Part shown: in pieces, positions 7,201 through 22,361 of the stretch
Numbering within the stretch: the stretch's first letter is position 1
How the letters are laid out: every line of letters begins with the position of its first letter
From: Sulfuricella sp.
Lineage (GTDB): Bacteria > Pseudomonadota > Gammaproteobacteria > Burkholderiales > Sulfuricellaceae
Direction of reading: 5' to 3'
DNA length: 24,000 bases
Assembly (NCBI GenBank): GCA_018336195.1
Contig: JAGXQV010000145.1
Coordinates: forward strand, 21,995-45,994
Notes under the pieces: generated by a model
The model's input: only the letters and a program-made list of their open reading frames with translations
Databases searched by the model: none
What the model was told of the DNA's origin: nothing
Position numbers and translations under genes: made by a program

Positions 7201-8646
7201 CGGGTGCTGGTGGTAGACGACAATGCCTCGGCACGCGAGATCCTGTCCGGCATGGCCCGCAATTTCGGGCTGGAGGTCGACGTGGCCGGGGACGGCCAGC
7301 AAGCCCTGGCGATGATCGGCGAGGCGGAACGGAAAGAACTCCCCTACGATCTGGTGCTGATGGACTGGAAGATGCCGGTGATGGACGGCGTCGAAACCAT
7401 GCTGCGCCTGCAGGAAGAACAACTGGCGCGAGTGCCGGCGGTCATCATGGTGACCGCCTACGGGCGCGAGGAGGCTCTGGGTTCCGCCGAGCAACGCGGG
7501 GTGGAACTCAAGACCGTGCTGACCAAGCCGGTGACCTCCTCGACGCTACTCGAAGCCATCGGCGAGATGCTGGGCAAGGGGCTGGTCGCAGATGATCGCG
7601 TCCACGACAAGGTTGATCGCGGCGCTACCGCCATGGATAGCCTCAAGGGTGCGCGGGTGCTACTGGTCGAGGACAACGATATGAACCAGGAACTGGCCAG
7701 CGAACTGCTTGGCCAGGCCGGCATGGAAGTGGTGATCGCCAACCACGGCCAGGAAGCGCTCGATATCCTGGCACGCGACGCCCGCTTCGACGGGGTGCTG
7801 ATGGATTGTCAGATGCCGGTGATGGACGGCTACACCGCCACCCGCGAAATTCGCAACAACCCGGCCTTCAAGAATTTACCGATTATCGCCATGACCGCCA
7901 ACGCAATGGCCGGCGACAAGGAGAAGGTAATGGAAGCCGGGATGAACGACCACATCGCCAAACCGCTCGACGTCGAGGAAATGTTCGCCACCCTCGCCAA
8001 ATGGATCAAGCCCGCCGGCACAGCCCCCGCCAGCAGCGCGCCTGCCCCGGCGGCGGCGCAGGGCGGCCTGCCCACCCTGCCCGGCATCGACATCAAGGCG
8101 GGACTCGCCACCACCATGAACAACGAAAAGCTCTACACCCGCCTGTTGGTGAAATTCCGCGACGGCCAGAGCAATTTCGCCGCATTGTTCCGCGCCGCCC
8201 AGGCCGATGCCGACCCCACCGCAGCGGCGCGCGCCGCCCATACCCTCAAGGGTACCGCCGGCAACATCGGCGCCAAGGGCGTACAAGCGGCAGCGGGAGA
8301 ACTGGAATCCGCCTGCAATCAAGGTGTTCCCACAGAGCGCATCGACGAACTGCTTAACCATGTCCTCGCCGAGCTGGCGCCGCTTATCGCCGGCTTGGCG
8401 CAAGTTGAAGGAGCGGAACCGCTTGCCGTGGAAGCACCGGGGACAACGTCGGTCGACCGGGCACGCCTCACCGGGTTGCAGGAAAAACTCAAGGCCCTGC
8501 TCGCCGACAGCGACACCGAAGCCAGCGACGTACTCGACGAACTCCGGGAACTCGCCAAGGGCACGCCGCTGGCAGCCAGCCTGAAGAAGGTTGCCGATGC
8601 CATAGCGGCCTACGACTTCGACGCGGCGCTGGAAGCCCTGGGCTGA
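4234..8646 (+). CDS. Hybrid sensor histidine kinase: 4HB_MCP-like N-terminal sensor - TM - HAMP - GAF - coiled coil - PAS - PAS - HisKA - HATPase_c - REC - REC - HPt
   Basis: 1470-aa ORF whose ATG overlaps the upstream stop (ATGA at 4234-4237). [26 protein letters not shown]...[26 protein letters not shown]...[19 protein letters not shown]. Two PAS blocks each ending ...[18 protein letters not shown]-box [21 protein letters not shown]-box [14 protein letters not shown]. Receivers [13 protein letters not shown] and [13 protein letters not shown]. HPt [13 protein letters not shown]. Confidence 0.93.
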
Positions 8647-8663
8647 TCGCCACGCCAGTCCCC

Positions 8664-10112
8664 ATGACACCCGCTCCAGGCAGCCACAGACTCTACGTGG
8701 CGGGCATCGGCGCTTCCGCCGGTGGGCTGGAGGCGATGTTGCCGCTATTCGCCCAGTTGCCTGCGACCGGCCGAATCGCCTACGTGGTCGCCCAGCACAT
8801 GGCGCACGACGCCCACAGCGAGCTGGTGGCCCGCCTGATCGGACGGGAATCCCGGCTGCCCCTGGCCGTCGCCCGCGACGGCGAAACACTCCAGGCCGAC
8901 CGGGTTTACCTGGTTCCCGCCGGCAAGGACGGCGTGGTGCTCGGCAACGCCCTGACCCTGCAAGAACCTTCCCCGCAATTTCTGTCCCACCCCTCGATCA
9001 ATGCGCTGTTCGCCTCGCTCGCCCACACCTACCGGGACAACGCCATCGGCATCGTGCTTTCCGGCACGGGATTCGACGGCGTCGCAGGCTGCCGGGCAAT
9101 CAAGGCTGGCGGCGGACTAACCTTCGCCCAGGATCCCGGCGAGGCCAAGTTCAACGGTATGCCGACGGCGGCAATCGAAGCCCGCCTGATCGACCGGGTA
9201 CTCCCGGTGGCAGCCATCGGCGGCGCGTTGGCGGGCCTCTTTCCGGGAACTGAGGTACCACCGCCGACCGCCGTCGCCAAGCCGCCGGTTGAATCGGCGC
9301 TTCCCGACGCGGCACTCCGCGAACTCGAATACCTAGTGCGCCTGGTGCATGAAGCGACGGGCATCGATTTCTCCGGCTACAAGGAAGAAACCCTGCTGCG
9401 CCGCCTGGAAAAGCGCAAAGCCCTCCTCGGCGTCACCTCGTCGGAAGCCTACCTGGCATTAATCCACCGCGACACTGACGAATTGCACACCCTGCAACAC
9501 CAGTTCCTGGTATCTCTCTCGTCCTTTTTCCGTGACCGCGAAGCGTTCCGCGAGCTGGAGCGCGCCCTGGCCGCCCTGCTCGCCCGGAAAACAGCGGGCG
9601 AGCCGCTGCGCGTCTGGGTGCCGGGATGCGCCTCGGGCGAGGAACCCTACACCCTGGCAATCGTGATCAGCGAATTGCTCGGCAACGACCGCGCGCGCCA
9701 CGCGGCAAACATCATTGCCACCGACCTCAACGACGAAGCGCTGGAAATGGCCCGCACCGGCCTATACCGCCACACGGCTTTCCGCGAAATGGAAGCGTCC
9801 CTGCAGAACCGCTACTTCGTCCCCAAAGGCCAACACTTGGCAGTATCGGAGACGCTGCGGAAAATGGTGTCCTTCGAGAAGCGCGACGTGCTCGACGGGC
9901 CGCCGGCCCAAGACCTCGACCTCATCAGTTGCCGCAACCTGCTGATCTACCTGAAAAGTGCCTTGCAGGACCGGCTGATTGCCGACTTTCACCGCGCCCT
10001 GCGACCCAACGGCCTGCTCTTCATCGGCCAGTCCGAATCGCCGGGACTGACCGGCAACGCGCTATTCGTCCCGGTGGACCGCGACCAGCGCCTGTTTCGC
10101 CGCCGTCCCTGA
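8664..10112 (+). CDS. CheB-CheR fusion protein (protein-glutamate methylesterase domain plus protein-glutamate O-methyltransferase domain), with no receiver domain
   Basis: The N-terminal half carries the CheB catalytic-triad contexts GIGASAGGLEAM (Ser), VVAQHM (His) and SGTGFDG (Asp). The C-terminal half carries the CheR SAM-binding motif VWVPGCASGEEPYTLAI and DLISCRNLLIYL. It starts 17 nt after the kinase stop. Confidence 0.9.
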   Translation: MTPAPGSHRLYVAGIGASAGGLEAMLPLFAQLPATGRIAYVVAQHMAHDAHSELVARLIGRESRLPLAVARDGETLQADRVYLVPAGKDGVVLGNALTLQEPSPQFLSHPSINALFASLAHTYRDNAIGIVLSGTGFDGVAGCRAIKAGGGLTFAQDPGEAKFNGMPTAAIEARLIDRVLPVAAIGGALAGLFPGTEVPPPTAVAKPPVESALPDAALRELEYLVRLVHEATGIDFSGYKEETLLRRLEKRKALLGVTSSEAYLALIHRDTDELHTLQHQFLVSLSSFFRDREAFRELERALAALLARKTAGEPLRVWVPGCASGEEPYTLAIVISELLGNDRARHAANIIATDLNDEALEMARTGLYRHTAFREMEASLQNRYFVPKGQHLAVSETLRKMVSFEKRDVLDGPPAQDLDLISCRNLLIYLKSALQDRLIADFHRALRPNGLLFIGQSESPGLTGNALFVPVDRDQRLFRRRP

Positions 10113-10633
10113 ACATCTCGTCACCCAGCTCGGCCACGACCGCCGAGGCACCTTTCAGACGCCCGGAGTGACCGCCTTGCCGCCGTTGCGCGTTTTTGTT
10201 TGGCAACCCTGACCGGCGTTTCGATCAGGCGCCTCACCAGCCGCCAATCCAAGGACGTGCTGGTCCCGGAGGAAAGCTGCGGATACGCCACGAAACCAAG
10301 AATTTCCGGCTGTTCGCCAAGCTGCTTGGACACGGGCTGATTGGGCGCCATTTTGTGTGAGGCTGAAGACTGCGGAGGGCGCTCAATGAGCGCTATGTGC
10401 CATAAGGAGACGGTCGGGAACCGCGCGATGAATGGCTGATCCTCGGCCGGAGCAGCCGCTCAGGCTAACTGAGATAAACGGCTACTTCCGACCCAAAGCG
10501 GAAATTGCCCACCAGAAGAAGCGGACGTCCAGGAACGTCCAAGCTCTCCGGCGGCAATGGGGCGTAGTGGAATTGCCGTCCGGTGCAGCGCCTTGGCGCC
10601 TTGTTATGCGAGCTAATTGAAGCGCTTTGATGT

Positions 10634-12247
10634 TCACGGCAAGGCTGGCAGGCCCAGTTCATTGAGGAAGGCATTGTGTCTGTCCCGCGCATCCTTGATG
10701 TTCTGCTCCAGGGCGACTAGCTCGGTATTGATTTCCTGCAAATCGACCTCAGCCTCGCCCACCGCCGTGCTGATATAGCGCGAGATATTCAGGTTGAAGT
10801 CGTTCTTCTCGATCTCTGCCATGTCCACCCGTCGGGCGTAGCGGGGCTCTTCCTTTCGGAATTGGTAGGTGCCGATGATCTTGGCGATGTGCTCCTCGCT
10901 CAATTGATTCTGGCGTTTGCCTTTCACGAAGTGCTCGGCGGCATTGATGAAGAGCACGTCGTCTGGCTTCTTGCACTTCTTCAGCACCAGGATACACACC
11001 GGGATGCCGGTGGAGTAGAAGAGATTGGCGGGCAGGCCGATGACGGTGTCGATGTGGCCGTCCTTGAGCAGCTTGGTGCGGATGCGTTCCTCGGCGCCGC
11101 CACGGAACAGCACGCCGTGGGGCAGGATGATCGCCATCACGCCTTCGTCCTTGAGGAAGTGGAAGCCGTGCAACAGGAAGGCGAAGTCGGCGGCGGATTT
11201 GGGGGCGAGGCCGTGGCTTTTGAAACGCACGTCGTCGGCCAGCGCGTCGGTCGGCTCCCAGCGGTAGCTGAACGGTGGATTGGCGACGACGGCGTCGAAG
11301 CTCGGCTTCTTCGCCGGGTTCGGCTCGCGCATCATGTCCCACTCGTTGAGCAGGGTATCGCCGTGGAAGATGTCGAATTCCGTGTCCTTCACCCCGTGCA
11401 GCAGCATGTTCATGCGGGCCAGGTTGTAGGTGGTGATGTTCTTTTCCTGGCCGAAGATTTTGCCGATGGCGCCGCCCGCCTTTGCCACCTTCTTGCGCAC
11501 GTTGAGCAGCAGCGAACCGGAACCGCAGGCGAAGTCCAGCACGCTCTCCAGCCGCTTTTTGGTCCCGGTTTTCGGTTCCTGGCTGTCCAGCGTGACGATG
11601 GCCGAAAGGATGTCGGAAATCTGCTGCGGGGTGTAGAACTCGCCCGCCTTCTTGCCCGACCCGGCGGCAAACTGGCCGATCAGGTATTCATAGGCATCGC
11701 CCAGCGCGTCGATGTTCGTGGAGAACTCCGCCAGCCCTTCGGCAATTTTCTGGATGATGGTGCACAGCTTGGCGTTCCGGTCCTCATACTTCTTGCCCAG
11801 CTTGGGAGAACTCAGGTCGATCTCGGAGAACAGGCCCTGAAAGGTGCTCTCAAAGGATTCCGTTTCGATGTATTTGAAGCCCGCTTGCAGCGTGTTGAGC
11901 AGCTCGCCGTTCTGGGTGCGCGCCAGGTTGGCGATGCTGTTCCACAGGTGCGCGGGCTGGATGACGTAATGCACCTTGCGCCGCATCTGCTTCTCGAACG
12001 CCGGGATGTCGTCCACATTGTTCGCATACCACAGCGCCAGCGGCACCTTGCGGGTGTCGCCGCCTACATCCGGGTAATCCCGCCCCAGCTCCTTCTTCGC
12101 CGCCGTCTCGTAGTTATCCGAGAGGTAGCGCAGGAAGAGGAAGGACAGCATGTAGTCGCGAAAGTCGTCCGCATCCATCGCCCCGCGCAGTTGGTCGGCG
12201 ATGCTCCAGAGGGTGTTGCCCAGTTGTTTTTGGTTGGTTTCGGTCAT
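10634..12247 (-). CDS. hsdM: Type I restriction-modification system, DNA methyltransferase subunit M (N6-adenine)
   Basis: 537 aa. AdoMet motif VLDFACGSGSLLLNV and catalytic motif VVANPPFSYRW. The N-terminal HsdM_N-like segment LWSIADQLRGAMDADDFRDYMLSFLFLRYLSDNYE resembles, from memory, the EcoR124I/type IC style. Confidence 0.95.
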   Translation of the reverse strand: MTETNQKQLGNTLWSIADQLRGAMDADDFRDYMLSFLFLRYLSDNYETAAKKELGRDYPDVGGDTRKVPLALWYANNVDDIPAFEKQMRRKVHYVIQPAHLWNSIANLARTQNGELLNTLQAGFKYIETESFESTFQGLFSEIDLSSPKLGKKYEDRNAKLCTIIQKIAEGLAEFSTNIDALGDAYEYLIGQFAAGSGKKAGEFYTPQQISDILSAIVTLDSQEPKTGTKKRLESVLDFACGSGSLLLNVRKKVAKAGGAIGKIFGQEKNITTYNLARMNMLLHGVKDTEFDIFHGDTLLNEWDMMREPNPAKKPSFDAVVANPPFSYRWEPTDALADDVRFKSHGLAPKSAADFAFLLHGFHFLKDEGVMAIILPHGVLFRGGAEERIRTKLLKDGHIDTVIGLPANLFYSTGIPVCILVLKKCKKPDDVLFINAAEHFVKGKRQNQLSEEHIAKIIGTYQFRKEEPRYARRVDMAEIEKNDFNLNISRYISTAVGEAEVDLQEINTELVALEQNIKDARDRHNAFLNELGLPALP

Positions 12248-12250
12248 GGT

Positions 12251-13147
12251 TTATGGCTTGCCCTCTTGCGGTGGGGGTAACGTTTTGGTGCGCTCTGCCA
12301 GCATCTTATCCTCGGATTTCACTCGGCGTTCCAGCTTCTTCAGGTCTTCTTCGGCAGCCAGTTTTTCGGGCTGAATACCGCGCTGCCCTAGCATGTCGCG
12401 CACGCTTTCGTTGTTCTTAACGTGTTCGTGCGTAATCGCGGGTTCGCCGCGCAAATTGTCTTGTCGCACGTTGTGATTCGTCATTTCGGTGGCGAGATTT
12501 TTGGCGGCAATGGTCAGCGTAGGCAAAAAATCAGCCAGCGGACGGTTGGCTACAATGCCGTATTTATTTTTCATGGCTTGCGTGGTGTTTCCACCAAACA
12601 GTGCCTGATCCCCCCGTGATCGAATCCGGCCAAAACCAGCATCGTCCACACCGCGCTCGTAAATGTTTTGCGAGAGTGCCTTTTCCGACTCCTTGAGCCG
12701 GTCACGTGCTTCCATGCGCGCTTGCAGGCGCATGCGGTCTTCAATTAGCTCTTGCTTGCGGGTTTGCACAGCAAAGTAGCTTTGCGCAAAGGCAACCTCA
12801 GGCTTGCGCGGATCGCCGTTCTGGGCAATCAGGTAACAGGCATAGCGGGTGAGCATGAAATCATCAATTTCCCGCTCCCCGCCCTTGCCATGGACGATCA
12901 ATTTCGTGACGCCACGAAAATGATCTGAAACCGCATGTCCAGAGGCTTCGCATGCCTGCATAGCGCGCTGGATGGCGGTTTGAAAGTTCTCCCAGCGCGC
13001 ATAGCCCAAGGGAACTTGCAAATCGCGGGCAAACCAGAATTCGACGCCCTCGGCATCGGCACGCTGTGCACCAGCCTCCAGACTACTTTGCAAGGCTTTG
13101 AGTGGCTCATCCATGGTGTTTCCTCCGCTGGTTTTGTACTTGTTCAT
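12251..13147 (-). CDS. dinD: DNA damage-inducible protein D (DinD) family protein. The start is uncertain (ATG 13147, or ATG 13114 = MDEPLK...).
   Basis: 298-aa ORF. EFWFARDLQVPLGYARWENFQTAIQRAMQACEASGHAVSDHF...LTRYACYLIAQNGDPRKPEVAFAQSYFAVQTRKQE matches my recollection of the conserved core of E. coli DinD (SRYACYL..QNGDP.KP....Q.YFA.QTR). The stop lies 3 nt before the hsdM start. Confidence 0.82.
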   Translation of the reverse strand: MNKYKTSGGNTMDEPLKALQSSLEAGAQRADAEGVEFWFARDLQVPLGYARWENFQTAIQRAMQACEASGHAVSDHFRGVTKLIVHGKGGEREIDDFMLTRYACYLIAQNGDPRKPEVAFAQSYFAVQTRKQELIEDRMRLQARMEARDRLKESEKALSQNIYERGVDDAGFGRIRSRGDQALFGGNTTQAMKNKYGIVANRPLADFLPTLTIAAKNLATEMTNHNVRQDNLRGEPAITHEHVKNNESVRDMLGQRGIQPEKLAAEEDLKKLERRVKSEDKMLAERTKTLPPPQEGKP

Positions 13148-13358
13148 GCATTTGAACTGTCAAGGATTCCTTGACAGTTGCCGCCGAGTCCAACTCCCCG
13201 TCCTCGAAGATGTTCTTCAGGTGCAGGGAGATGTTCTGCTTCGTGGCATCGAAGAGTTCCGCCATCTCCAACTGCGTCAGCCAGACGGTCTGCTCCTGCG
13301 CCCGCAGCTTGATCTGGCTGCGGCCGTCTTCGGTTGTGTAGAGAATCAGGTCGTTCAT
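13107..13358 (-). pseudogene. Truncated N-terminal remnant of a RhuM-family (virulence protein RhuM-like) gene
   Basis: The first ~68 aa, MNDLILYTTEDGRSQIKLRAQEQTVWLTQLEMAELFDATKQNISLHLKNIFEDGELDSAATVKESLTVQ, follow the typical RhuM N-terminus (..LY.tedG...WLtq.qmaeLF....qNIs.HlkNIf..gEL....tvKe.LtVq). The ORF then diverges (MHEQVQNQRRKHHG*) and stops at 83 aa. Full-length family members are roughly 300+ aa, and the expected ...EG.R.V.R....YNLD...VGYRV core is absent. Its 3' end overlaps the dinD start region. Confidence 0.7.
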
Positions 13359-13363
13359 GGTGT

Positions 13364-14575
13364 CTACGCTGGTGCCCGGGGGGATACAGGTGTGGTTGCT
13401 AATTCTGCCACTGCAGGGCGGAATGAATAGCGGTCCAGGAAAACGTTGAGAATCTCGCGGAACATCTTCTTGTCAGTGGAGGTGATCGATTCAGACTCGA
13501 AGACCGAATACTTGGCATGACTTCTGACATTCAAAAAACGTGCGTAGAGGGCCTTATTGGCATGCCCTTCAAAACATGTAGAGATGTGTTGTCGGCCAAA
13601 GAATATGGCGGTCTTTTCGAGAATGCTACGGAGCGAGTTGAAATGATATTGTGAAATCTTTCCAGATTTCGCCACCGCACGCAGCTCGTCCAAGGCCGCG
13701 ACATGATGCAGAAAGGGAGACTCGCCGGTATCTTCGAGAGTGTATGTCTGCGCCTCATTCAGCCGGTGCAGAATGTATGCCTTCTTCCTAATATTGTCTT
13801 TGCCCTCAGGGGGTCTCTTCCCTGTAAGTTCATTGAACATCACATTGAAGAACAAACCATGGTGCGTAGAAATTACGACCTTCAGCTTATTGTTTTCATT
13901 TTTCAGCAATCCACCTAGGCTAGCCGCAACGGCAATGGTGTTGTGCTCATCCAGTGACGAGATGGGGTCATCGATATAAACATACTTTACCCAATCGTAA
14001 GGCGCCCCTTTTTCAGCTTCGATGGCGAGTTGGAGTATTGACAAGAAGAAGCACCAGATAAAAATGTTTTCCTCGCCTCTGGAGATTTTGATGTCCTCAA
14101 GCCGCCTGCGATTTCCGGCCACCGTCACGTCGCGATGAAAGCGTATCTCGGCCGCAGCGTAGTCAATTCTGAAATCAAAGTCAGCGTGCTGATGAAGAAG
14201 TGGGCGAATGAGGTCTTCGATGCCCATTCCGTCAAGGCCATCAAAGAAGCGAGACTGAGCCTTAAACTTAATTTTGCGTTCCCGGTCCTCATTGAGGTCA
14301 TTGTCCCAATCAAAGAGGTCTTCAGTAAAGGCATTGAAGTAAAGAGTGTCCCGTTTCTCCTCCTTCTTGCCGAGATCTTTAAATTCCATCGACAGGCGAG
14401 TTTTCCCCACGCCATTGTGTGCGAACACCAGAACGAAATCATTTCCTGAAACCGGTGTAGTGCCTTTCCGATTGGCCGTCTTCTTGCGTTTGTTAACTCC
14501 CTTTAAATCCCTGCGGAGCTTTTTCGCCAGTGACTCCAGCGATCTGAATTTGTTGATGGTTGTTATCTTGCTCAT
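13364..14575 (-). CDS. PrrC-like ABC/AAA_13-type ATPase, a candidate anticodon nuclease
   Basis: 403 aa. Walker A FAHNGVGKTRLS. ABC-signature-like ISRGEENIF. Walker B/D-loop YVYIDDPISSLDEHN. H-switch VVISTHHG. The C-terminal region has R316-x3-E320 (LRSILEK) and H353 (NVRSHAKY). This spacing mirrors the R320/E324/H356 catalytic residues I recall for E. coli PrrC (396 aa). The gene is embedded in a type IC-like R-M locus directly after hsdS (ATGA overlap at 14572-14575). That it is a real CDS is near certain. The confidence given here is for the functional call. Confidence 0.62.
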   Translation of the reverse strand: MSKITTINKFRSLESLAKKLRRDLKGVNKRKKTANRKGTTPVSGNDFVLVFAHNGVGKTRLSMEFKDLGKKEEKRDTLYFNAFTEDLFDWDNDLNEDRERKIKFKAQSRFFDGLDGMGIEDLIRPLLHQHADFDFRIDYAAAEIRFHRDVTVAGNRRRLEDIKISRGEENIFIWCFFLSILQLAIEAEKGAPYDWVKYVYIDDPISSLDEHNTIAVAASLGGLLKNENNKLKVVISTHHGLFFNVMFNELTGKRPPEGKDNIRKKAYILHRLNEAQTYTLEDTGESPFLHHVAALDELRAVAKSGKISQYHFNSLRSILEKTAIFFGRQHISTCFEGHANKALYARFLNVRSHAKYSVFESESITSTDKKMFREILNVFLDRYSFRPAVAELATTPVSPRAPA

Positions 14576-15804
14576 GATTGGATGGCATCAGGGGATGGAA
14601 ATAGCTGCTGCATCAGACCCTCCTTGTGAGACTTGAGGGTATCGAGCTTCTCGATTTCAGCGGCGATCGTGTTGTCGAGGCTCGTGAGGCAGTCTGCGAT
14701 CTTCCTCTGTTCGGCCAATGTCGGGAAAGCGCTTTGCCAGCTCTCGATTGCCCCTTTAGTGATGTGCATGATGCCAAGCCCATTCGTAGTCTTGGCCTTC
14801 ATGTTTTCAGTTTCATTTTCGAGGGTGATGAAGAGGAACTGCTTGTCGATTCCACGCTGCTCAATCACTTTCCAAATGTGGTAGTGATAAATGGATTTTT
14901 CGCCGCGCCAGATGCGGGGTCCAAAGGACGCGGACCACGCATAAAGCAGGTCGCCCTTCTCACAATACTTCGTCTCATCCAACTCAAGGTCTGAGTAATA
15001 CCAAGCGTTGCTGGTGAAGAAGTTCCCAACACGCAGAACTGGGTATTTCCCAGATTCGAGCAGTTCTTCCTGTTTGTAGGCTCGGCCGTTGTAGAAAATC
15101 GCGGCTTGGCCCAAGGCCATCCTTTTCCACTCCCCGGCGTTTTGGAATTCTGGGAAGCGGAGGAGGGGTTGGGTTTCGCGTTCGCGGGGGAAAAGCTGTT
15201 GCATCAGCCCTTTTTTATGGGTCTTGAGCGCGTCCACTTTCCGCGCTTGCGCGGCCATCAGTTCGTCCACTGAACTCAGGCACTCGGCGATTTTTTGTTG
15301 TTCGGCGGGGGATGGAAGCGCGACTGAGAATGAGAGGAAGGTTTCAGCATGGATGCGTCTTGCCTTTCTACTTCCATCGGCAGTTTCACCCAACCTTTCG
15401 TAAAAATCTCTGCGCTTGACGTATTCCAAAAGGAACACGGGGTTGAGCCCGCCAGTGATGTCAAAGCATGGCAAATCGACCGTTGACTCAAAGTTGTCCA
15501 AGCTGGGGGGAATGATGCCGAAGGCTTGGTTCAGAAAATCAAGTTTGCTGTAAATAAACTGTCCGGTTTTGCGCCGGAAATACTGAGTGTTGATGCTGCC
15601 TTGAATGGCATCGTTCTTCTCGAAAACTCCGTTTCCCCAGAGCTTAACGGTAATCTTCTTTGCGACGTTGCCCTTACTTCCTGGTAGTCGGCTTTCACTC
15701 AGAAATTCGCCAAGCTGTCTTTCTTTCCACCCCTCTGCCCCCCGAAACTCAGGAAACCTCCGCTTCGGCACCAGCGCGGACTTTTTGCTGCGCGCTCCGC
15801 TCAT
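14572..15804 (-). CDS. hsdS: Type I restriction-modification system, specificity subunit S
   Basis: 410 aa with two variable target-recognition regions. They are separated and followed by repeated conserved regions AEQQKIAECLSSVDELMAAQARKVDALKTHKKGLMQQLFP and AEQRKIADCLTSLDNTIAAEIEKLDTLKSHKEGLMQQLFP. RFPEF motifs precede each TRD. ATGA overlaps occur at both ends. Confidence 0.93.
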   Translation of the reverse strand: MSGARSKKSALVPKRRFPEFRGAEGWKERQLGEFLSESRLPGSKGNVAKKITVKLWGNGVFEKNDAIQGSINTQYFRRKTGQFIYSKLDFLNQAFGIIPPSLDNFESTVDLPCFDITGGLNPVFLLEYVKRRDFYERLGETADGSRKARRIHAETFLSFSVALPSPAEQQKIAECLSSVDELMAAQARKVDALKTHKKGLMQQLFPRERETQPLLRFPEFQNAGEWKRMALGQAAIFYNGRAYKQEELLESGKYPVLRVGNFFTSNAWYYSDLELDETKYCEKGDLLYAWSASFGPRIWRGEKSIYHYHIWKVIEQRGIDKQFLFITLENETENMKAKTTNGLGIMHITKGAIESWQSAFPTLAEQRKIADCLTSLDNTIAAEIEKLDTLKSHKEGLMQQLFPSPDAIQS

Positions 15805-16811
15805 GCCGCTCCTCCCAATTCCTGCGCCAGCAGTTCATGCAGTTTGGCCTGGATGAGTTTTTTGTCGGGCAATTGCAATTGGTATTGGGCGATCAGCGTG
15901 GGCGAGAGGTTGCGCGACAGGGCGTATTCCACCACTTCCTGGTCGTGGTCACAGCATAGCAGAACGCCGATGCTGGGGTTCTCGTGCGCTTTCTTGATGT
16001 CGCGGTCGAGCGCTTCAAGATAGAAATTCAGTTGCCCCATGTGCTCGGGGCTGAATTTGCCGATTTTGAGTTCAAAAGCCACCAGCGCAGAAAGGCCGCG
16101 ATGGTAAAAGAGCAGGTCAATGAAAAAATCCTGATTGCCGACTTGCAGGCGGAATTTTTCGCCCATGAAGATGAAATCCGCGCCCAGTTCCAGAATGAAG
16201 GCCTTCATGTTCGCCACCAGGGCGCGTTGCAGGTCGCCTTCACTGTGAGATTCGGGCAAGCCGAGAAACTCAAGGACGTAACTGTCTTTGAAGGCGCCGG
16301 CGATCAGCGGGTTCAATTCTCTCGCCACCGGTGAGAGTTTTGCGCCGGTCACACTGCGCTCAAAATGGGTAGCGTCAATTTGACGCTCCAGTTCCCGCTT
16401 GCCCAAACCCTCGGCCAAGGTCAATTGCAGGTAGTAAGCGCGTTCTTCCGCCGACTTGCAGCGCGAAAAGATGATGGTGTTGTGCGTCCAGGGCAATGCT
16501 CGCGCCAGTGCCGAGCGTTTTTCATCGCCTCGATAGGTCTCGTAAAACTGCTTCATGCGCCACAGGTTCTTGTCGCTGAAACCTTTGGCCTCCGGGGCGT
16601 GTTGGGCGATGTAGCGTGCCAGTTCGGACACCACGCCTTTTCCCCAGACTTCGCGTTGTACTTTTTCGCTGATGGTTTGGCCGATGTGCCAATACAACTC
16701 CATCAGGGCCGTATTGGCCTGTGCAAAGATTTTTTGCCGCGCTTGCTGAATCTGCCCTAGCAATTCGCGGAAGGCGTTTTCGGTGGGGTCGGTGTTGTTC
16801 AGCTTATTCAT
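15801..16811 (-). CDS. YhcG/DUF1016-family PD-(D/E)xK nuclease-like protein
   Basis: The N-terminal helical region LMELYWHIGQTISEKV....WGKGVVSELARYI and LPWTHNTIIFSRCKSAEERAYYLQ is typical of the DUF1016 N-domain. The C-terminal nuclease core FFIDLLFYHRGLSALVAFELKIGKF carries an intact D...E-x-K. I chose the start at ATG 16811 (MNKLNN...), which overlaps the hsdR stop by 8 nt. The track ORF extends to 16856. Confidence 0.82.
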   Translation of the reverse strand: MNKLNNTDPTENAFRELLGQIQQARQKIFAQANTALMELYWHIGQTISEKVQREVWGKGVVSELARYIAQHAPEAKGFSDKNLWRMKQFYETYRGDEKRSALARALPWTHNTIIFSRCKSAEERAYYLQLTLAEGLGKRELERQIDATHFERSVTGAKLSPVARELNPLIAGAFKDSYVLEFLGLPESHSEGDLQRALVANMKAFILELGADFIFMGEKFRLQVGNQDFFIDLLFYHRGLSALVAFELKIGKFSPEHMGQLNFYLEALDRDIKKAHENPSIGVLLCCDHDQEVVEYALSRNLSPTLIAQYQLQLPDKKLIQAKLHELLAQELGGAA

Positions 16812-19800
16812 ACGCGCTGAGTCCTGAGATGTCGCGGCCATCGGCACGTTTGACAAGGTAGGGGGCGCAATCCTGCATCAGGGCGATTTCCTTGTGGGTG
16901 CGCTCTTTCCAGCCGAGGTCATACGGGGCGTAGAGGTCGCTGAGTTGCTCGCCATCGAAAATCATGCGGTCGAGAATGCCGTCCACAAAGCTTTGCAGGG
17001 CGGCGGTGGCGAGGCCGTGTTTCGCAGAGATGGCGGCGAGTTCCTGGGCGTTCTTTTCAGCCTTGAAGCGGGTGTAGCCCTCGCGGATGGCGGTCTCGGA
17101 GAGACCCTCGCCGGCCTTGAGGGTGCCGATGTATTCGGCGATGGCGTCGCGCTCGTTCATGAACTTGGCATCGGCGCCGATGAGGCCGATGAGTTCCTCG
17201 CGAGTCATCTTGGACTTGCCCGGCCCTTTCTGCGAGAACCTGGCGATAAGGCCCATGATGTAGTCGTAGTCGATGACGGCGGAGGCGAAGAGGACGAACT
17301 CGAAGTCGAGCTGGTCGATTTGTTCTGCGGGATCGTCGGCGCCCGGCCCATCACCCTCCTTGCCGCTCTTGACCCGCTGCTCTCTGAGCTTTTTGGCGGT
17401 TTCCAGATACTGGCCCTTGAAGCCGCGCAGGTTGTCCTCGGGCAGCACCTGCTCGATGCTGGCTTTGTTTTCCCCGGTGAGGTCGGTGTATTGGTCGAGT
17501 TGGGTCTTGAGGCGCTGGACTTCCTTGAAGTGGCTGATGAAGGCAGCGCGGGCTGCGTCGCCCTTCAAATTGGCGACGGCGGAGGGCGTACAGCTTAGGC
17601 CCTGAGACTTCATGAAGTCGTCGAGCTTCTGTACGGCGGCTTCCAGCTTCTTTATCACCACCGGCGCCTTGTCTACCAGCCAGATTTCCCGCGCCTGCTC
17701 GCCGGTCTTCTCACCGGAAAAAAGGGCGATGGCGGCATCGACTGAATCTTGTTGTTGGCGGAAGTCGAGGATGTTGCCGTAGGGCTTGGTGCCGTTGAGC
17801 ACGCGATTGGTGCGCGAGAAGGCCTGGATCAAGCCGTGGTGCTTGAGGTTCTTGTCCACGTAGAGCGTATTCAGGAACTTGGAATCGAAGCCGGTGAGCA
17901 GCATGTCCACGACGATGGTGATGTCGATCTTTTGCGCGGCGGGGTAGTCGGCATTCGGCCACTGCTGGTCTTTGATGCGCTTTTGCACATCCTGGTAGTA
18001 GAGGTCGAACTCGCTAAGGCGGTGATTGGTGCCGTAGCGGGCGTTATAGTCGGCGAGGATGACTTCAAGCGCTTGCTTCTTTTTCTCCGGCTCGACCTTG
18101 TTGTCCTCCTGCTCCTGCGGGAGGTCACTGGAAAGCTGCTTGATGTCCTTCTTGGCTTCTTCGTTCTCCGCGAGCTCAGCGGGCGGTGAGAAGACGCAGG
18201 CGATGTTCAGTGGCTTGTAGTCGGGGTCGGCGGTCTGTTTATCAGCCTGCAAGGTCTTGAACAGCGCGTGGTATTCGATGGCGTCGTTGATGGACGCGGT
18301 GGCGAGGATGGCGTTGAAGCGGCGTCCGCCGGTGGCGGCATCGTGCTTTGTCAGAATTTCGCCAACGATGGCCGCTTTGGAAAAGGGGGGCTTTGGTTCA
18401 TCGGCTTTGGGCGCCCCCTTGCCAACTGGCTTCGCCTCTTTCTCGTTCTTGGGCTTCGGCTTGAAGTAGTCGATGTGAAAGCGCAGGACATTGCCATCCT
18501 CGATGGCGTGGGTGATGGTGTAGGCGTGGAGCTGCTTCTGGAAGAGGTCTTCCGTGGTGCGCATGGAGGCCTGGGTATCCTCGATCTTCTGCAAAGTGGC
18601 ATTGGCCTCAAAGATGGGGGTGCCGGTGAAGCCGAAGAGTTGCGCCTGGGGGAAGAAGTCTTTGATGGCCTTGTGGTTCTCGCCGAACTGCGAGCGGTGG
18701 CACTCGTCGAAGATGAAGACGATGCGTTTGTCCTTCAGCGCTTCGAGTTGCTCCTTGTAGGTGGCCTGGCCGTTTTTGCTGCGCTGCTTGTTGCGCTTGC
18801 TGGACTCAATCAGCGCGAGGCCGAGCTTCTGGATGGTGGTGACGATGACCTTGTCGGCGTAGTCCTCGGAAAGCAGGCGGCGCACGAGGGCGGCGGTGTT
18901 GGTGTTTTCTTCGACGCAGCCTTCCTGGAACTTGTTGAATTCCTCCCGCGTCTGGCGGTCGAGGTCTTTGCGATCCACGACGAAAACGCACTTGTGGATA
19001 TGGTCGTTTTCCTTGAGCAGGGTGGACGCCTTGAAGGAGGTGAGCGTTTTTCCAGAACCTGTGGTGTGCCAGATGTAGCCATTGCCGTTGTCTTCGGCTA
19101 TGCACTTCACCATGTGCTGCACGGCATAGACCTGGTAGGGCCGCATAATCATGAGCTTTTGCTCCCCGGCGAGCAGCACCATGTAGCGGCTGATGATCCG
19201 CCCGAGGTCGCACTTTTTCAGGAAGCGCTCGGCGAACTCGTCGAGTTGGGTGATCTTGCGGTTGTCCTCGTCGGCGAACTCATAGATGGGCAGGAAGCGC
19301 TCGTCGGCATTGAAGGCGAAGTGGCGGGCGTTGTTGTTGGCGAAGTAGTAGCTGCGGTCGCGGTTGCTGACGATGAAAAGCTGCATGAAGCAGAGCAGCG
19401 TCTTGGTGTAGCCGTTGCCGGGGTCGTGCTTGTATTCGACGATCTGCTCCATGGCCCGGCGCGGATTGACGCCGAGAGTCTTCAACTCGATCTGCACCAC
19501 CGGCACGCCGTTGATGAGTAGAATCACGTCGTAACGGTGGTGGCTGTTGTCGGTGTTAATGCGGAGCTGGTTGATGACCTCGAAGTGGTTTTTGCACCAG
19601 TCCTTGAGATTGACCAGGGTGTAGTTCAGCGGCGTGTCATCGTCGCGGGTGAAGGCATTGATGCTGCGCAGGGTCTTGGCAGCGGCGAAGACATCCGGGG
19701 TGACGATTTCATCCAGCAGCCTGGCGAACTCGCTATCCGTGAGCCGGACACGATTCAGGGCCTCGAATTTGTCGCGGAAGTTTTTCTCTAACGCAGCGCG

Positions 19801-19881
19801 GTCAGTGATATCCGAGCGGTATTCGTATTTGAGCCCCGTCAGTTTATCGATGAAGCTTTGTTCGATTTGTTGTTCAATCAT
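16804..19881 (-). CDS. hsdR: Type I restriction enzyme, endonuclease/translocase subunit R (type IC-like)
   Basis: I chose the start at ATG 19881 (MIEQQIEQSFIDKL...). The 34-aa upstream extension in the track looks non-coding. Nuclease motif RYDVILLINGVPVVQIELKT. Helicase motif I IWHTTGSGKTLTS and motif II VFIFDECHRSQFG. QLFIVSNRDRSYYFANN resembles my recollection of the EcoR124I HsdR region QLFVISNGTDTRYFANT. Confidence 0.95.
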   Translation of the reverse strand: MIEQQIEQSFIDKLTGLKYEYRSDITDRAALEKNFRDKFEALNRVRLTDSEFARLLDEIVTPDVFAAAKTLRSINAFTRDDDTPLNYTLVNLKDWCKNHFEVINQLRINTDNSHHRYDVILLINGVPVVQIELKTLGVNPRRAMEQIVEYKHDPGNGYTKTLLCFMQLFIVSNRDRSYYFANNNARHFAFNADERFLPIYEFADEDNRKITQLDEFAERFLKKCDLGRIISRYMVLLAGEQKLMIMRPYQVYAVQHMVKCIAEDNGNGYIWHTTGSGKTLTSFKASTLLKENDHIHKCVFVVDRKDLDRQTREEFNKFQEGCVEENTNTAALVRRLLSEDYADKVIVTTIQKLGLALIESSKRNKQRSKNGQATYKEQLEALKDKRIVFIFDECHRSQFGENHKAIKDFFPQAQLFGFTGTPIFEANATLQKIEDTQASMRTTEDLFQKQLHAYTITHAIEDGNVLRFHIDYFKPKPKNEKEAKPVGKGAPKADEPKPPFSKAAIVGEILTKHDAATGGRRFNAILATASINDAIEYHALFKTLQADKQTADPDYKPLNIACVFSPPAELAENEEAKKDIKQLSSDLPQEQEDNKVEPEKKKQALEVILADYNARYGTNHRLSEFDLYYQDVQKRIKDQQWPNADYPAAQKIDITIVVDMLLTGFDSKFLNTLYVDKNLKHHGLIQAFSRTNRVLNGTKPYGNILDFRQQQDSVDAAIALFSGEKTGEQAREIWLVDKAPVVIKKLEAAVQKLDDFMKSQGLSCTPSAVANLKGDAARAAFISHFKEVQRLKTQLDQYTDLTGENKASIEQVLPEDNLRGFKGQYLETAKKLREQRVKSGKEGDGPGADDPAEQIDQLDFEFVLFASAVIDYDYIMGLIARFSQKGPGKSKMTREELIGLIGADAKFMNERDAIAEYIGTLKAGEGLSETAIREGYTRFKAEKNAQELAAISAKHGLATAALQSFVDGILDRMIFDGEQLSDLYAPYDLGWKERTHKEIALMQDCAPYLVKRADGRDISGLSAYE

Positions 19882-20228
19882 TGTTGGAGCTCTGCAATCT
19901 TGGTACCGCCCTTGGCAACACATGACACCGGTAAATTTCCACAAATAGCCGCCTCTTACAATCATTGAGCATTCTGAATGCATTTCACTTCAGGATGTTC
20001 ACTGCTAACACCGTTTGGCCGCATAACCACGAAGCACAGCGGACGACGGATGGCGAAGCTGGCCGACGGGTCCGGTGGAGTAGATTGTTGGGACAGCTTG
20101 CCATTGGTACTGGCGCCGGTCACGCAACCGCCATTCCAGTGAATGTCTGCTCTAGGAAAATCGGTAAATGACGGCTTATGGCCGACAGCAGTCATGCTAT
20201 CACATTGGCATGACCGTCCGCTCCGGCC

Positions 20229-20265
20229 GAAAAACAGACCCTCACGGCAAACAATCCGACGGTCT
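20229..20265 (-). terminator. Putative Rho-independent terminator of the REC-REC-histidine kinase gene
   Basis: The minus-strand RNA reads AGACCGUCGG-auuguuug-CCGUGAGGGUCU followed by G-UUUUU. The outer stem has five perfect pairs (AGACC/GGUCU), with further pairs around one mismatch and a bulge. It lies about 60 nt downstream of the stop at 20325. Confidence 0.5.
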
Positions 20266-20324
20266 CTTGTGGATAGAAACCAGTCCCCCAATCCTTGCCA
20301 GGTCCCCACAAAGCTGCCCTCCCC

Positions 20325-22079
20325 CTACTGCACCAACACGTCTCCCGCCTCCTCCGCCGCGCGCGGCAGCATCACCATCAGTGTGGTGGTGTTGTTTTCG
20401 TCGGAAACGTTCATGGCGATCCTGCCGCACTGGGTTTCGGCGATGAGTTTGGCCGAATAGGTACCCAGACCGGTGCCGCCCTGCTTACCGGCGGTGACGA
20501 ACTTGTCGAAGAAATGCTCGCGGATTCCCAGGGGAACCGCGCCATGATTGACAAGGCTGATCATGGCGCGATCCTCCTTGCCGTGCAGGTCGATCTTGAT
20601 GGTCTGCTGTTGTCCCGAGGCTTCCATGGCATTCTTGAACAGATTGCCGAACAGGGAATAGCAGAGGAGTTCGTCGCCGGCGATGAAAAAGGCTTCCTGC
20701 TCGCTGACTTCCTTGCCGCTCGCCATGAATTGGACGCTTACCTGGCGCGCCTCCAGTTCCGATTGTTTTTCCTTGACGATGCGTTTCAACAGTTGGGCAA
20801 TGTCGACCCGCCCGGGGGTGAATGCATAGGTGCCCTGCTCCATCTTGTAGAGATCCAGCGACAGGTTGACCATGTTGAGCACGCTGTAGGCGGACTGCTC
20901 GATATCCTTGATGATTTCCTTCTGGTCGTTGGACATCATGTCGTCGTCGAGGAGGATCGAGGAGAAGTTGATGATCCCGCCGATCGGGTTTTTCATGTCG
21001 TGGTGGACGATGCGTTCCACTTCCTCGCGCAGGCGGAAATTCTCTTCGAGAATCGCGTGCTGCTTCTGCAATTCCTCATGGTTGCGGCGAATTTCGTCGA
21101 ACGAACGTTTCAGCCGCAAATGAGTACGGATGCGCGCCTTGAGGATGGGAGGATCGGCCGGTTTGCTGATGTAGTCCACCGCGCCAAGTTCCAGGCCCTG
21201 GGTGACGTTGACCGCCTCGCCGCCCATGGCGGTAAGGAAAATCACCGGGATGTCGGCGGTGGCGGGATTGGCCTTGAGACGGCGGCAAACCTCGAAACCG
21301 TCCATTTCCGGCATCATCACGTCGAGCAGGATCAGGTCGGGGAGCTTTCCGGATTCGAGGATCTTCAGCGCCCGCTCCCCGCCGTTGGCCGCTTTCACGC
21401 GGTATTCGTCGTCGAGCAGTTCAACCAGCAAGTCGAGGTTATCCGGCACGTCGTCGACCACCAGGATGGTCGCCTCGCGCGCCAAACGCCCCTTGAATTC
21501 GTCATCCATCACGATCGCCAGCGGCTCGGCGCCGGCTTTCATCGGTGGCACCGCAATAGGCCGCGCAGCAATCCCCGGAGGCTGGAATTCCGGCACGCTC
21601 TGCGCCGCTGTTCTGGGCGCGGCGGCGCTCGGCGCCGGCTTTGCCGCGCCGCCCGCCACGAACGGGAACGCAGCCGCCTTGGCGGCGGCAACTTCCGGGC
21701 GGGGCGTATTGATGATCTTGGTGAGCTTGGTTTCCAAACTGTTGACGGTAAACGGCTTGACCATGAAATCGGAAACACCCGCCTCGATCGCCATTTCAAC
21801 CTGGTGGCGCTGGGTTTCGGCGGTCACCATCAGCACCGGCAGGTTGGCCAGCTTGGCATCCGCGCGGATCGCCTTGAGCATCTCCAGGCCGCTCATTACC
21901 GGCATGTTCCAGTCGGTAATCACCACCTGGACCGGTTGCGACCTGAGAATATGCAGGCCTTCCGTCCCATTGGCCGCCATCACGATATTTTTGAACCCCA
22001 TCTGGTTGAGATTCTTGGCAATGACGCGGCGCATGCTGTCCATGTCGTCGACCACCAGGAAACGCAGGTTGTAGTTCAT
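20325..22079 (-). CDS. Response-regulator/histidine-kinase hybrid: REC (CheY-like) - Ala/Pro-rich linker - REC - HisKA - HATPase_c
   Basis: 584 aa. REC1 LRFLVVDDMDSMRR...VVITDWNMPVMSG...MVKPF. REC2 ILVVDDVPDNL...LILLDVMMPEMDG...YISKP. H-box ERIVHHDMKNPIGGI. N-box FGNLFKNAMEAS. G-box GGTGLGTYSAKL. SD-like GGGAGA lies 5-6 nt upstream of the ATG at 22079. Confidence 0.9.
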   Translation of the reverse strand: MNYNLRFLVVDDMDSMRRVIAKNLNQMGFKNIVMAANGTEGLHILRSQPVQVVITDWNMPVMSGLEMLKAIRADAKLANLPVLMVTAETQRHQVEMAIEAGVSDFMVKPFTVNSLETKLTKIINTPRPEVAAAKAAAFPFVAGGAAKPAPSAAAPRTAAQSVPEFQPPGIAARPIAVPPMKAGAEPLAIVMDDEFKGRLAREATILVVDDVPDNLDLLVELLDDEYRVKAANGGERALKILESGKLPDLILLDVMMPEMDGFEVCRRLKANPATADIPVIFLTAMGGEAVNVTQGLELGAVDYISKPADPPILKARIRTHLRLKRSFDEIRRNHEELQKQHAILEENFRLREEVERIVHHDMKNPIGGIINFSSILLDDDMMSNDQKEIIKDIEQSAYSVLNMVNLSLDLYKMEQGTYAFTPGRVDIAQLLKRIVKEKQSELEARQVSVQFMASGKEVSEQEAFFIAGDELLCYSLFGNLFKNAMEASGQQQTIKIDLHGKEDRAMISLVNHGAVPLGIREHFFDKFVTAGKQGGTGLGTYSAKLIAETQCGRIAMNVSDENNTTTLMVMLPRAAEEAGDVLVQ

Positions 22080-22361
22080 GTCACTTCTCCCTGTTTAATA
22101 TCATCCATTATCGGCGCCGCCACCGTGGAAAAGCAACAAAGCTTTACCACTGTAAGTTGGCAGCAAAAGTGGGATAGGACCATGCAATATTTTTTCTTCG
22201 CGCTCACCAAAATCATGCGGAAACGCGATCTGTTCCTCATTACAACTCACTTAAACTCACAAAAAGGTATGCCGAATGAATAACTCCTTGATTTGACCTT
22301 TACCGGCATGATTCATGACGCTATGCTTTGTGGACATCCGCAAGGAACATGGAGAAACACA
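22080..22361. promoter_or_regulatory. AT-richer divergent intergenic region between the REC-REC-HK gene and glgP. It presumably carries both promoters, and the glgP RBS is at 22351-22354.
   Basis: 282 bp with no convincing ORF, flanked by divergently oriented genes. GGAG lies 7 nt upstream of the glgP ATG. I could not place a convincing -35/-10 pair with proper spacing. Confidence 0.3.

Follow-up and report, generated by a model that had tools for sequence, protein, structure and literature searches.

A type IC-like restriction-modification operon with embedded candidate defence genes in Sulfuricella sp.

Introduction

Does a type I restriction-modification (R-M) operon that encloses several further genes encode one integrated defence machine, or does it carry passengers that are exchanged independently of one another? 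The question is raised by a locus of Sulfuricella sp. (assembly GCA_018336195.1, contig JAGXQV010000145.1), analysed within a window of 24,000 nucleotides (contig positions 21,995 to 45,994; all coordinates below are those of the window unless a related locus is named). Seven open reading frames (ORFs), all on the minus strand, follow one another in the order hsdR-yhcG-hsdS-prrC-rhuM remnant-dinD-hsdM. An initial annotation, made from the sequence alone, took them for an undescribed stacked unit in which the R-M complex may serve as a scaffold or guard for the products of the embedded genes. The analysis described here points with good probability to a different reading, that of one type IC-like R-M operon from a widely transferred lineage, in which cargo slots are refilled by recombination and the passengers are not parts of one composite machine.

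The operon and its core genes

The coordinates and order of the seven ORFs, by ORF listing and inspection of start codons, are essentially those first annotated, and the family assignments were all borne out by profile searches with Pfam, NCBIfam and PADLOC:

16804 to 19881, minus strand: hsdR, EcoR124I-like type I restriction subunit, opening the operon (TIGR00348, 8.8e-119)
15801 to 16811, minus strand: yhcG/DUF1016, passenger with a PD-(D/E)xK nuclease fold, in slot A, the gap between hsdR and hsdS (PADLOC PDC-S02, 1e-127)
14572 to 15804, minus strand: hsdS, specificity subunit with two target-recognition domains (TRDs) (Methylase_S, two stretches)
13364 to 14575, minus strand: prrC-like anticodon nuclease (ABC-type NTPase plus C-terminal RNase), right after hsdS (PADLOC PrrC, 2e-127)
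13107 to 13358, minus strand: rhuM remnant of 83 codons, N-terminal helix-turn-helix-like region only (PADLOC PDC-S05 models, positions 1-80)
12251 to 13114, minus strand: dinD, Bro-N domain protein (PDC-S13), adjoining hsdM (NF008573, 1e-110)
10634 to 12247, minus strand: hsdM, methyltransferase, last gene of the operon (TIGR00497, 1.4e-119)

Read from hsdR to hsdM, the junctions are an 8-nt overlap, two 4-nt overlaps, a 5-nt gap, an 8-nt overlap and a 3-nt gap, which reproduces from the ORF coordinates the range initially reported (an 8-nt overlap to a 5-nt gap). The first of these is the overlap of yhcG with the hsdR stop.

HsdR, HsdM and HsdS all score above curated cut-offs, and the catalytic motifs of HsdR and HsdM are intact, as expected of a type I R-M enzyme. 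HsdR reaches 397.9 bits against TIGR00348 (cut-off 284.55) and holds HSDR_N, SWI2_SNF2, T1R_D3-like and EcoR124_C (PF12008, 2.5e-66) domains in Pfam, with a DECH motif at residue 392 and a Walker A motif, GSGKT, at 275; the ATG at 19881 agrees with the start used in the family. HsdM reaches 400.2 bits against TIGR00497 (cut-off 242.75), matches N6_Mtase at 5.9e-104, and retains NPPF at residue 323 and the S-adenosylmethionine motif FACGSGS at 238. HsdS matches Methylase_S with 106 bits (cut-off 22) and the PADLOC model Specificity_I at 4.5e-117. At the DNA level only conserved 5', central and 3' segments of hsdS match other loci, and the TRDs are nearly unique.

The label "type IC-like" holds by sequence. 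The best solved relatives of HsdR are the EcoR124I/II HsdR proteins (PDB 2w00 and 4be7), aligned end to end at 1e-116, HsdM matches the EcoR124II M protein (7bst_D) over its full length at 3e-88, and the EcoR124_C domain is present in HsdR; no match between the window HsdS and the EcoR124 S subunit was detectable by sequence search. The textbook type IC organisation, with hsdM beside hsdS, is not found. As the initial annotation had noticed, hsdM stands apart from hsdS, at a distance of 2.3 kb, and the two genes are separated in 48 of 49 relatives as well. EcoR124I itself differs in gene order and has no embedded genes.

Related loci and two cargo slots

Relatives were collected with HsdM as the bait from a single genome for each species, and the frequencies given below are those of this lineage. 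At least 80 loci encode an HsdM at 80-96% protein identity, in Beta-, Gamma- and Deltaproteobacteria, Verrucomicrobiota, Cyanobacteria, Planctomycetota, Bacteroidota-related lineages and others. The R-M lineage moves horizontally. Slot statistics refer to the 49 loci in which both hsdR and hsdM are present, with passengers counted if at least 100 amino acids (aa) long. Without exception, these complete loci have the fixed order hsdR-slot A-hsdS-slot B-hsdM, with slot B filled in 48 and slot A in 18. One locus has no passenger, 17 have one, 21 have two, six have three, three have four and one has five, such that 10 of the 49 carry at least three. The load of the window, three intact passengers and a remnant, is at the upper end of this range and is not exceptional.

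PrrC is found in 29 of the 49 relatives, in each directly after hsdS, followed in frequency by RhuM (20/49), YhcG (11/49) and DinD (5/49). Pfam searches on representatives place AlbA_2/HATPase_c_4, PDDEXK_3, zeta-toxin-like kinase, Fic and GmrSD proteins in the slots, along with a large ABC ATPase and an IS200-like Y1 transposase. A PIN-like protein (126 aa) and an HI0074-family nucleotidyltransferase-binding protein were judged by eye only. The exact combination of passengers in the window was not seen among the 49 complete relatives.

Parts of that combination do recur. The arrangement R-yhcG-S-prrC-M is found in three related loci (L027, L048 and L054), R-S-prrC-dinD-M in three others (L072, L094 and L099), R-S-dinD-prrC-M in L090, R-S-prrC-rhuM-dinD-M with full-length rhuM in L089, and R-S-rhuM remnant-dinD-M in L078 and L092, the contig of the latter ending before hsdM. 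DinD and YhcG occur in either slot and in either order relative to PrrC (L025, L028, L038, L090, L095). Among the collected loci, the nearest relative of HsdM is in L001 and L002 (96% identity), that of HsdR in L009 (88%), that of HsdS in L033 (67%) and that of PrrC in L037 (84%); DinD is nearest to L078 (92%) and L089 (90%), and YhcG to L040 (76%). Because the passengers assort independently and the nearest relative of each gene lies in another locus, the operon in the window is a recombinant mosaic. DNA homology is correspondingly blocky: hsdM matches 80 loci, hsdR about 50, the 5' part of rhuM about 30 and the three conserved hsdS segments 49-61, compared with 1-10 for dinD, prrC, yhcG and the TRDs. 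A second public assembly, independent of this one, contains an identical hsdS-prrC-83aa-dinD-hsdM stretch (L088). That passengers assort independently while the slots stay fixed is most simply explained by homologous recombination between the conserved blocks.

PrrC, YhcG and DinD

The PrrC of the window has an N-terminal ABC-type NTPase with GVGKT at residues 55-59 and DDPISSLD at 202-209. Residues G57-K58-T59 (Walker A), D202-D203 (Walker B) and H238/H239 are invariant in 30 homologues, as are R316, E320 and H353 in the C-terminal part, which correspond to the published catalytic triad of EcoPrrC, Arg320-Glu324-His356 (PMC1484252). PrrC was first characterised in EcoprrI, a type IC system of E. 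coli, and its latency and guard link with type IC enzymes have been published. The prr locus of E. coli CT196 (hsdM-hsdS-prrC-hsdR) resembles the window in its type IC enzyme, in the position of prrC right after hsdS, which in the window takes the form of a 4-nt overlap with the hsdS stop, and in the NTPase motifs and the Arg-x3-Glu...His triad. It differs in order, in that hsdR comes first and hsdM last in the window (R...S-prrC...M), and in that the window has three further embedded ORFs. Given the intact motifs and the canonical hsdS-prrC adjacency, the window PrrC would most likely act as in EcoprrI, as a latent anticodon nuclease that is kept inactive by the type IC enzyme and freed when a phage inhibits that enzyme.

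YhcG scores 182.1 bits against YhcG_C (8e-54) and 139.1 bits against DUF1016_N (1e-40), with cut-offs of about 33, and its D...ELK motif is visible in the translation (IDLLFYH...AFELK). DinD scores 369.7 bits against NF008573 (cut-off 242), 8e-116 against PDC-S13 and 38.6 bits for the Bro-N domain (cut-off 25.6; 1.7e-9); it is 38% identical to E. coli DinD, and its gene has GGAGGA 6 nt 5' of the ATG. An E. coli-type LexA box (CTGT-N8-ACAG) was looked for 5' of dinD and is absent; the palindrome in rhuM described below contains CTGT...ACAG, with a spacer of 13 nt and not 8. Sequence searches found no solved structures for PrrC, DinD or YhcG. Most likely, YhcG and DinD are embedded as autonomous candidate defence genes, which gain co-transfer and co-expression from the operon, and are not subunits of a composite.

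The rhuM remnant

The remaining embedded ORF had been taken for a remnant of rhuM, and only positions 1-80 of the PDC-S05 models are in fact matched. Full-length RhuM relatives have 333-336 aa, with the Virulence_RhuM domain at residues 60-309. The window ORF ends at codon 83 and is similar to full-length RhuM only to about codon 70; it has no Pfam hit and so is not a member of Virulence_RhuM (PF13310). The window is one of 12 among 33 rhuM-bearing loci in which the gene is truncated or internally deleted. Deletion end points lie near codon 27 in L091, 70 in the window, 77 in L078, 82 in L092 and 85 in L004 and L015, the last two of which retain the C-terminus. With end points that differ in this way, the deletions are repeated and independent. 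The intact counterpart of slot B of the window is present in L089, as prrC-rhuM-dinD-hsdM with rhuM at full length.

As the pair of rhuM remnant and dinD recurs in L078, L092 and L031, a functional two-gene module of RhuM-N and DinD was also considered. It was rejected as the leading interpretation because the remnants stop at different points and an intact rhuM precedes dinD in L089. RhuM is protective: PDC-S05 cloned alone protected E. coli against T7, T5 and T4, by about 1000-fold against T7 and T5 in E. coli B (PMC12881386). Since a single cloned gene protects, RhuM works without an R-M partner. In a further locus (L065, 494-763), a rhuM remnant lacks the region of the palindrome, about codons 58-70; the deletion is precise and keeps the frame, as palindrome instability would lead one to expect.

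Palindromes within the passenger genes

Two of the embedded genes of the window contain long palindromes within their coding sequence, neither assigned to a strand:

13155 to 13179, no strand: perfect 25-nt palindrome AACTGTCAAGGAATCCTTGACAGTT in rhuM codons 60-68 (repeat scan; arms of 12+12 nt, 100% complementary)
12896 to 12925, no strand: near-perfect 30-nt palindrome in dinD codons 64-73, encoding DHFRGVTKLI (repeat scan; 13-nt arms, 92% complementary)

Codons 60-68 of rhuM are palindromic across related loci from many phyla, and the same position is palindromic, with different sequences, in distant rhuM genes from Methylocystis, Aliarcobacter, Klebsiella and Vibrio plasmids. Over 28 sequences, 96.4% of cells are paired, as compared with 78.5% in shuffles (reached in 0 of 500), and 23-44% in controls slid along the gene; nine of 11 pairs have changes on both sides. 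The encoded peptide varies drastically (VKESLT, AEESSV, VNQRLT, CKQILQ, IRKFLI) with pairing kept, and when the peptide is held fixed, synonymous-codon resampling reaches the observed pairing at p of 0.0002-0.03 per sequence. The predicted RNA fold has -18.7 kcal/mol. Similarity between the window and full-length rhuM stops 4-5 nt past the palindrome. All four combinations of inner-stem type with outer-stem-plus-downstream type exist, which shows that recombination occurred at the hairpin and that the arms were re-matched later.

The dinD palindrome has the family form GAYCATTTTCGTGGCGTCACGAAAATGRTC, also 30 nt long and at codons 64-73, of which the window copy has one mismatch. Of 87 DinD relatives, 70 have at least 11 of its 14 pairs; where the score is low, the cause is mostly a shift of register during extraction. 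Most relatives of DinD with 68-92% identity keep the palindrome, whose "synonymous" positions are invariant, and a few variants, in L025, L028 and L146, are compensatory; E. coli dinD has a 7-bp version only. A subset of DUF1016/YhcG genes contains perfect palindromes of 25-27 nt that encode IRESVTPE-like repeats and whose stems covary (L011 6353-6407, L027 4963-4989, L048 6646-6672, L050 7517-7541, L054 6714-6822, L064 7675-7699 and L074 5213-5237). The yhcG gene of the window has none. Perfect hairpins with a stem of at least 9 and a loop of at most 7 are distributed among the gene families of the loci as follows:

hsdR: 0 in 145 kb
hsdS: 1 in 60 kb
hsdM: 2 in 79 kb
prrC: 1 in 35 kb
rhuM: 0.7 per kb
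dinD: 0.7 per kb
yhcG: 1.2 per kb

In loci that have lost these genes, hairpins of the rhuM and dinD types persist as orphan arrays between hsdS and the next gene, with homology limited to the palindromes themselves. There are five in 250 nt in L005 (2171-2413) and four or five in L008 (1663-1931) and L010 (896-986), with further arrays in L064 (9173-9246), L002 (8865-8937) and L009 (8879-8949). A two-hairpin module in L002, L005, L008, L009 and L064 precedes differing passengers, namely yhcG, a zeta-toxin-like gene or an IS200-like transposase.

Several identities were considered for these elements. A search of Rfam 15 with the window operon and three related loci gave no match at the hairpins. 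Integron attC sites were rejected, given that the flanks CGGCAAC and GTTCAAA miss the R-box consensus (RYYYAAC...GTTRRRY); many hairpins begin with AAC and end with GTT, many other copies begin with AGT and end with ACT, and no integrase ORF is present in the window. A structure of the sense-strand RNA only is disfavoured, because mismatch intermediates of the G·U type and of the C·A type occur at about the same frequency. The palindromes may form hairpins at the level of DNA, may be symmetric sites for proteins, or may be maintained by intrastrand template switching (for which see PMC8794818). It is tentatively suggested, as an idea with somewhat less than an even chance of being right, that the palindromes are selected nucleic-acid elements rather than mutational by-products, and form an undescribed class of cis-element common to three unrelated families of R-M-embedded passengers. 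Selection on the palindromes would explain how hairpins outlive genes as orphan arrays at the 5' edge of slot B. No mention of the coding palindromes surfaced in a limited literature search, and they may be the one new result of this analysis.

A separate kind of repeat was observed in slot B of several loci, where hairpins like repetitive extragenic palindromic (REP) sequences, CCTGGGGC-NNN-GCCCCAGG, flank the ORF of an IS200-like Y1 transposase (Pfam Y1_Tnp, 1e-24). The sites are L013 8600-8775, L025 9335-9472, L038 7254-7467, L008 2025-2198, and L010 694-827 and 1171-1274. The hairpins and transposase together are a REP/RAYT-like insertion inside a type I operon.

Genomic setting

A CheB/CheR fusion gene flanks the block on one side and a hybrid histidine-kinase gene on the other; the block has 48-60% G+C compared with 62-68% in its flanks. 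DNA homology to related loci runs from about 10489 to 19950, the alignment with the closest locus, L001, ending at 10489. The range first annotated, 10113-20228, thus takes in non-homologous spacer on both sides. Neither a tRNA gene nor an integrase nor repeat boundaries were found in searches for island boundaries at the block. The block of about 9.4 kb is horizontally acquired and is inserted among signal-transduction genes of a host with about 64% G+C. Two features lie at its edges:

10522 to 10541, minus strand: terminator-like hairpin about 95 nt past the hsdM stop, where the transcription unit may end (consensus scan only)
19882 to 20324, minus strand: 443-nt spacer 5' of hsdR, presumed promoter region (beyond about 19950 not conserved among related loci)

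The flanks (3-10112 and 20325-22079) are dense in signal-transduction genes, with a hybrid histidine kinase fragment, a PocR/GAF/Cache protein, a 1470-aa multi-PAS hybrid kinase and the CheB-CheR fusion, and a response-regulator/kinase in the opposite flank. Three ORFs at 22257-23981 have no Pfam match. Plus-strand ORFs over hsdM (10862-12280, 472 codons) and over hsdR (18268-19521, 417 codons) are most likely shadow ORFs of G+C-rich coding sequence. Among the related loci, L002 has a weak match to a group II intron domain just 5' of hsdR (2843-2985; E 1.6e-4, below the gathering score), and L008 has two Acido-Lenti-1 small RNA matches at the gathering score 5' of hsdS (37-81 and 249-293).

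Mechanism and alternatives

According to the exchange of cargo proposed here, the two gaps between core genes would act as slots that are refilled by recombination, for which the likely anchors are the conserved stretches at the ends of the core genes, within hsdS and in the 5' part of rhuM. In the Sulfuricella copy, slot A holds the DUF1016/YhcG gene with a nuclease fold, and slot B holds PrrC, DinD and the rhuM fragment, which is what a deletion left. The R-M enzyme would provide the first line of defence, with PrrC behind it.

Some observations weigh against this proposal. The frequencies on which it draws come from a single lineage collected with an HsdM bait, and the near-constant filling of slot B could mean that this lineage needs some passenger, which would be nearer to the idea first put forward. 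Evidence for co-transcription consists of junction geometry and weak consensus scans, and no promoter was identified 5' of hsdR. The only studied homologue of DinD is an SOS protein of E. coli, and the sequence CTGT-N8-ACAG is found nowhere in the window. Finally, the sole PDC-S02 (DUF1016) representative that was tested, in E. coli B, gave no protection (PMC12881386), such that YhcG is a candidate only for a role in defence.

It is very improbable that the R-M complex scaffolds or guards PrrC, YhcG and DinD alike, with all three triggered when R-M is inhibited. The tight, co-directional junctions, the precedent of PrrC and the filling of slot B in 48 of 49 relatives speak for such an integrated system, but the passengers switch slot, order and partner freely, with nearest relatives in different loci and with DinD and YhcG in either slot and on either side of PrrC. 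Most DinD relatives at 70-75% identity have no hsd gene of this lineage within 6 kb, several RhuM relatives sit outside R-M loci, and RhuM protects alone. The scaffold or guard role suggested by the initial annotation is documented only for PrrC with type IC enzymes, and nothing in this analysis ties YhcG or DinD to the R-M complex. That annotation would have counted cargo that varies independently of the R-M genes, with no enrichment, against its own proposal; the independent variation is observed, but some passenger is nearly always present. The opposite extreme, in which all passengers except PrrC are hitch-hikers or addiction-type genes with no role in defence, shielded by the operon and decaying, is improbable as well. 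It would account for the many truncated rhuM genes (12 of 33 loci), for the IS200-like transposase, zeta-toxin-like, Fic and PIN-like genes in the slots, and for the lack of protection by the tested PDC-S02 representative. However, the YhcG and DinD of the window are full-length with family motifs intact and high scores against hidden Markov models (HMMs), the closest DinD relatives (78-92% identical) are full-length in many loci, and RhuM is protective by experiment.

The seven ORFs are probably read from one transcript that starts at a promoter 5' of hsdR, with translational coupling, and the single transcription unit initially claimed is compatible with the tight junctions, the promoter and terminator scans giving nothing to the contrary. 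It is rather unlikely that internal promoters, for example before hsdM as in EcoR124I, or processing sites give independent expression. Classical type IC loci do have separate promoters for hsdMS and hsdR, and an order with hsdR first would otherwise express restriction ahead of modification in a new host; in addition, processing or pausing could occur at stable hairpins, one of them 40 nt 5' of dinD and another within that gene. Against separate units, a consensus scan found no sigma-70-like promoter on the operon strand, stop and start overlap at four of the six junctions, and the 22 terminator-like sites are not above the expectation from shuffled sequence (14.6 ± 3.6).

Relation to known embedded systems

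The claim that such a stacked unit is undescribed did not survive, because embedding in type I hsd loci has been published and other stacked composites are easily found; the arrangement in the window is of a known kind. Under the term "guilt-by-embedding", Payne et al. (bioRxiv 2024) reported defence genes nested in helicase-methylase-ATPase (Hma), BREX, DISARM and type I R-M systems, with 17,432 embedded genes in 3,568 distinct cassette combinations and with PrrC almost exclusively embedded in type I R-M. That work is the source of the PDC models in PADLOC, which has models for all four passengers of the window, with PDC-S02, S05 and S13 built from such embedded cases. Like those cases, the window has further genes enclosed by the core genes on the same strand, and its YhcG, RhuM fragment and DinD match PDC-S02, S05 and S13, respectively, at very strong HMM scores. 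Neither fixed slots within a single R-M lineage nor coding palindromes are discussed there. Milman et al. (2023) described type I loci with DUF1016, a DinD-RhuM fusion protein, GIY-YIG and Fic between core genes.

The RRDM island of enteropathogenic E. coli (EPEC) is likewise a seven-ORF, single-promoter type I R-M operon that encloses another defence system. It differs in its passenger, DarTG2, which lies between hsdS and hsdR, and in having the repressor RptR as first gene. A repressor of the RptR type was sought 5' of hsdR in the window, and no comparable first gene was found; ORFs in 19962-20460 have no homology support from related loci. Two further composites with overlapping junctions were observed, each with an extra short hsdS fragment 5' of hsdM. 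Methylocystis rosea plasmid pGW6_2 (L083, 2853-10996) carries hsdM-rhuM-hsdS-Shedu-HAD hydrolase-hsdR, and an Aliarcobacter plasmid (L086, 2970-10906) carries hsdM-rhuM-hsdS-KAP NTPase-ATP-binding protein-hsdR.

Significance

The operon adds one combination to a catalogued phenomenon and does not establish a new principle. The lineage with the order R-S-M does show unusually clearly two fixed cargo slots, of which slot B is almost never empty and which are refilled from one shared pool of passengers, and is a handy natural system for studying the exchange of defence genes. The coding palindromes are the most interesting loose end and merit a separate study. If they are indeed selected elements, they would control expression of the passengers and of the downstream hsdM, or serve as crossover points for passenger exchange. 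Functional palindromes would suggest that embedded defence genes share their regulation or their mobility.

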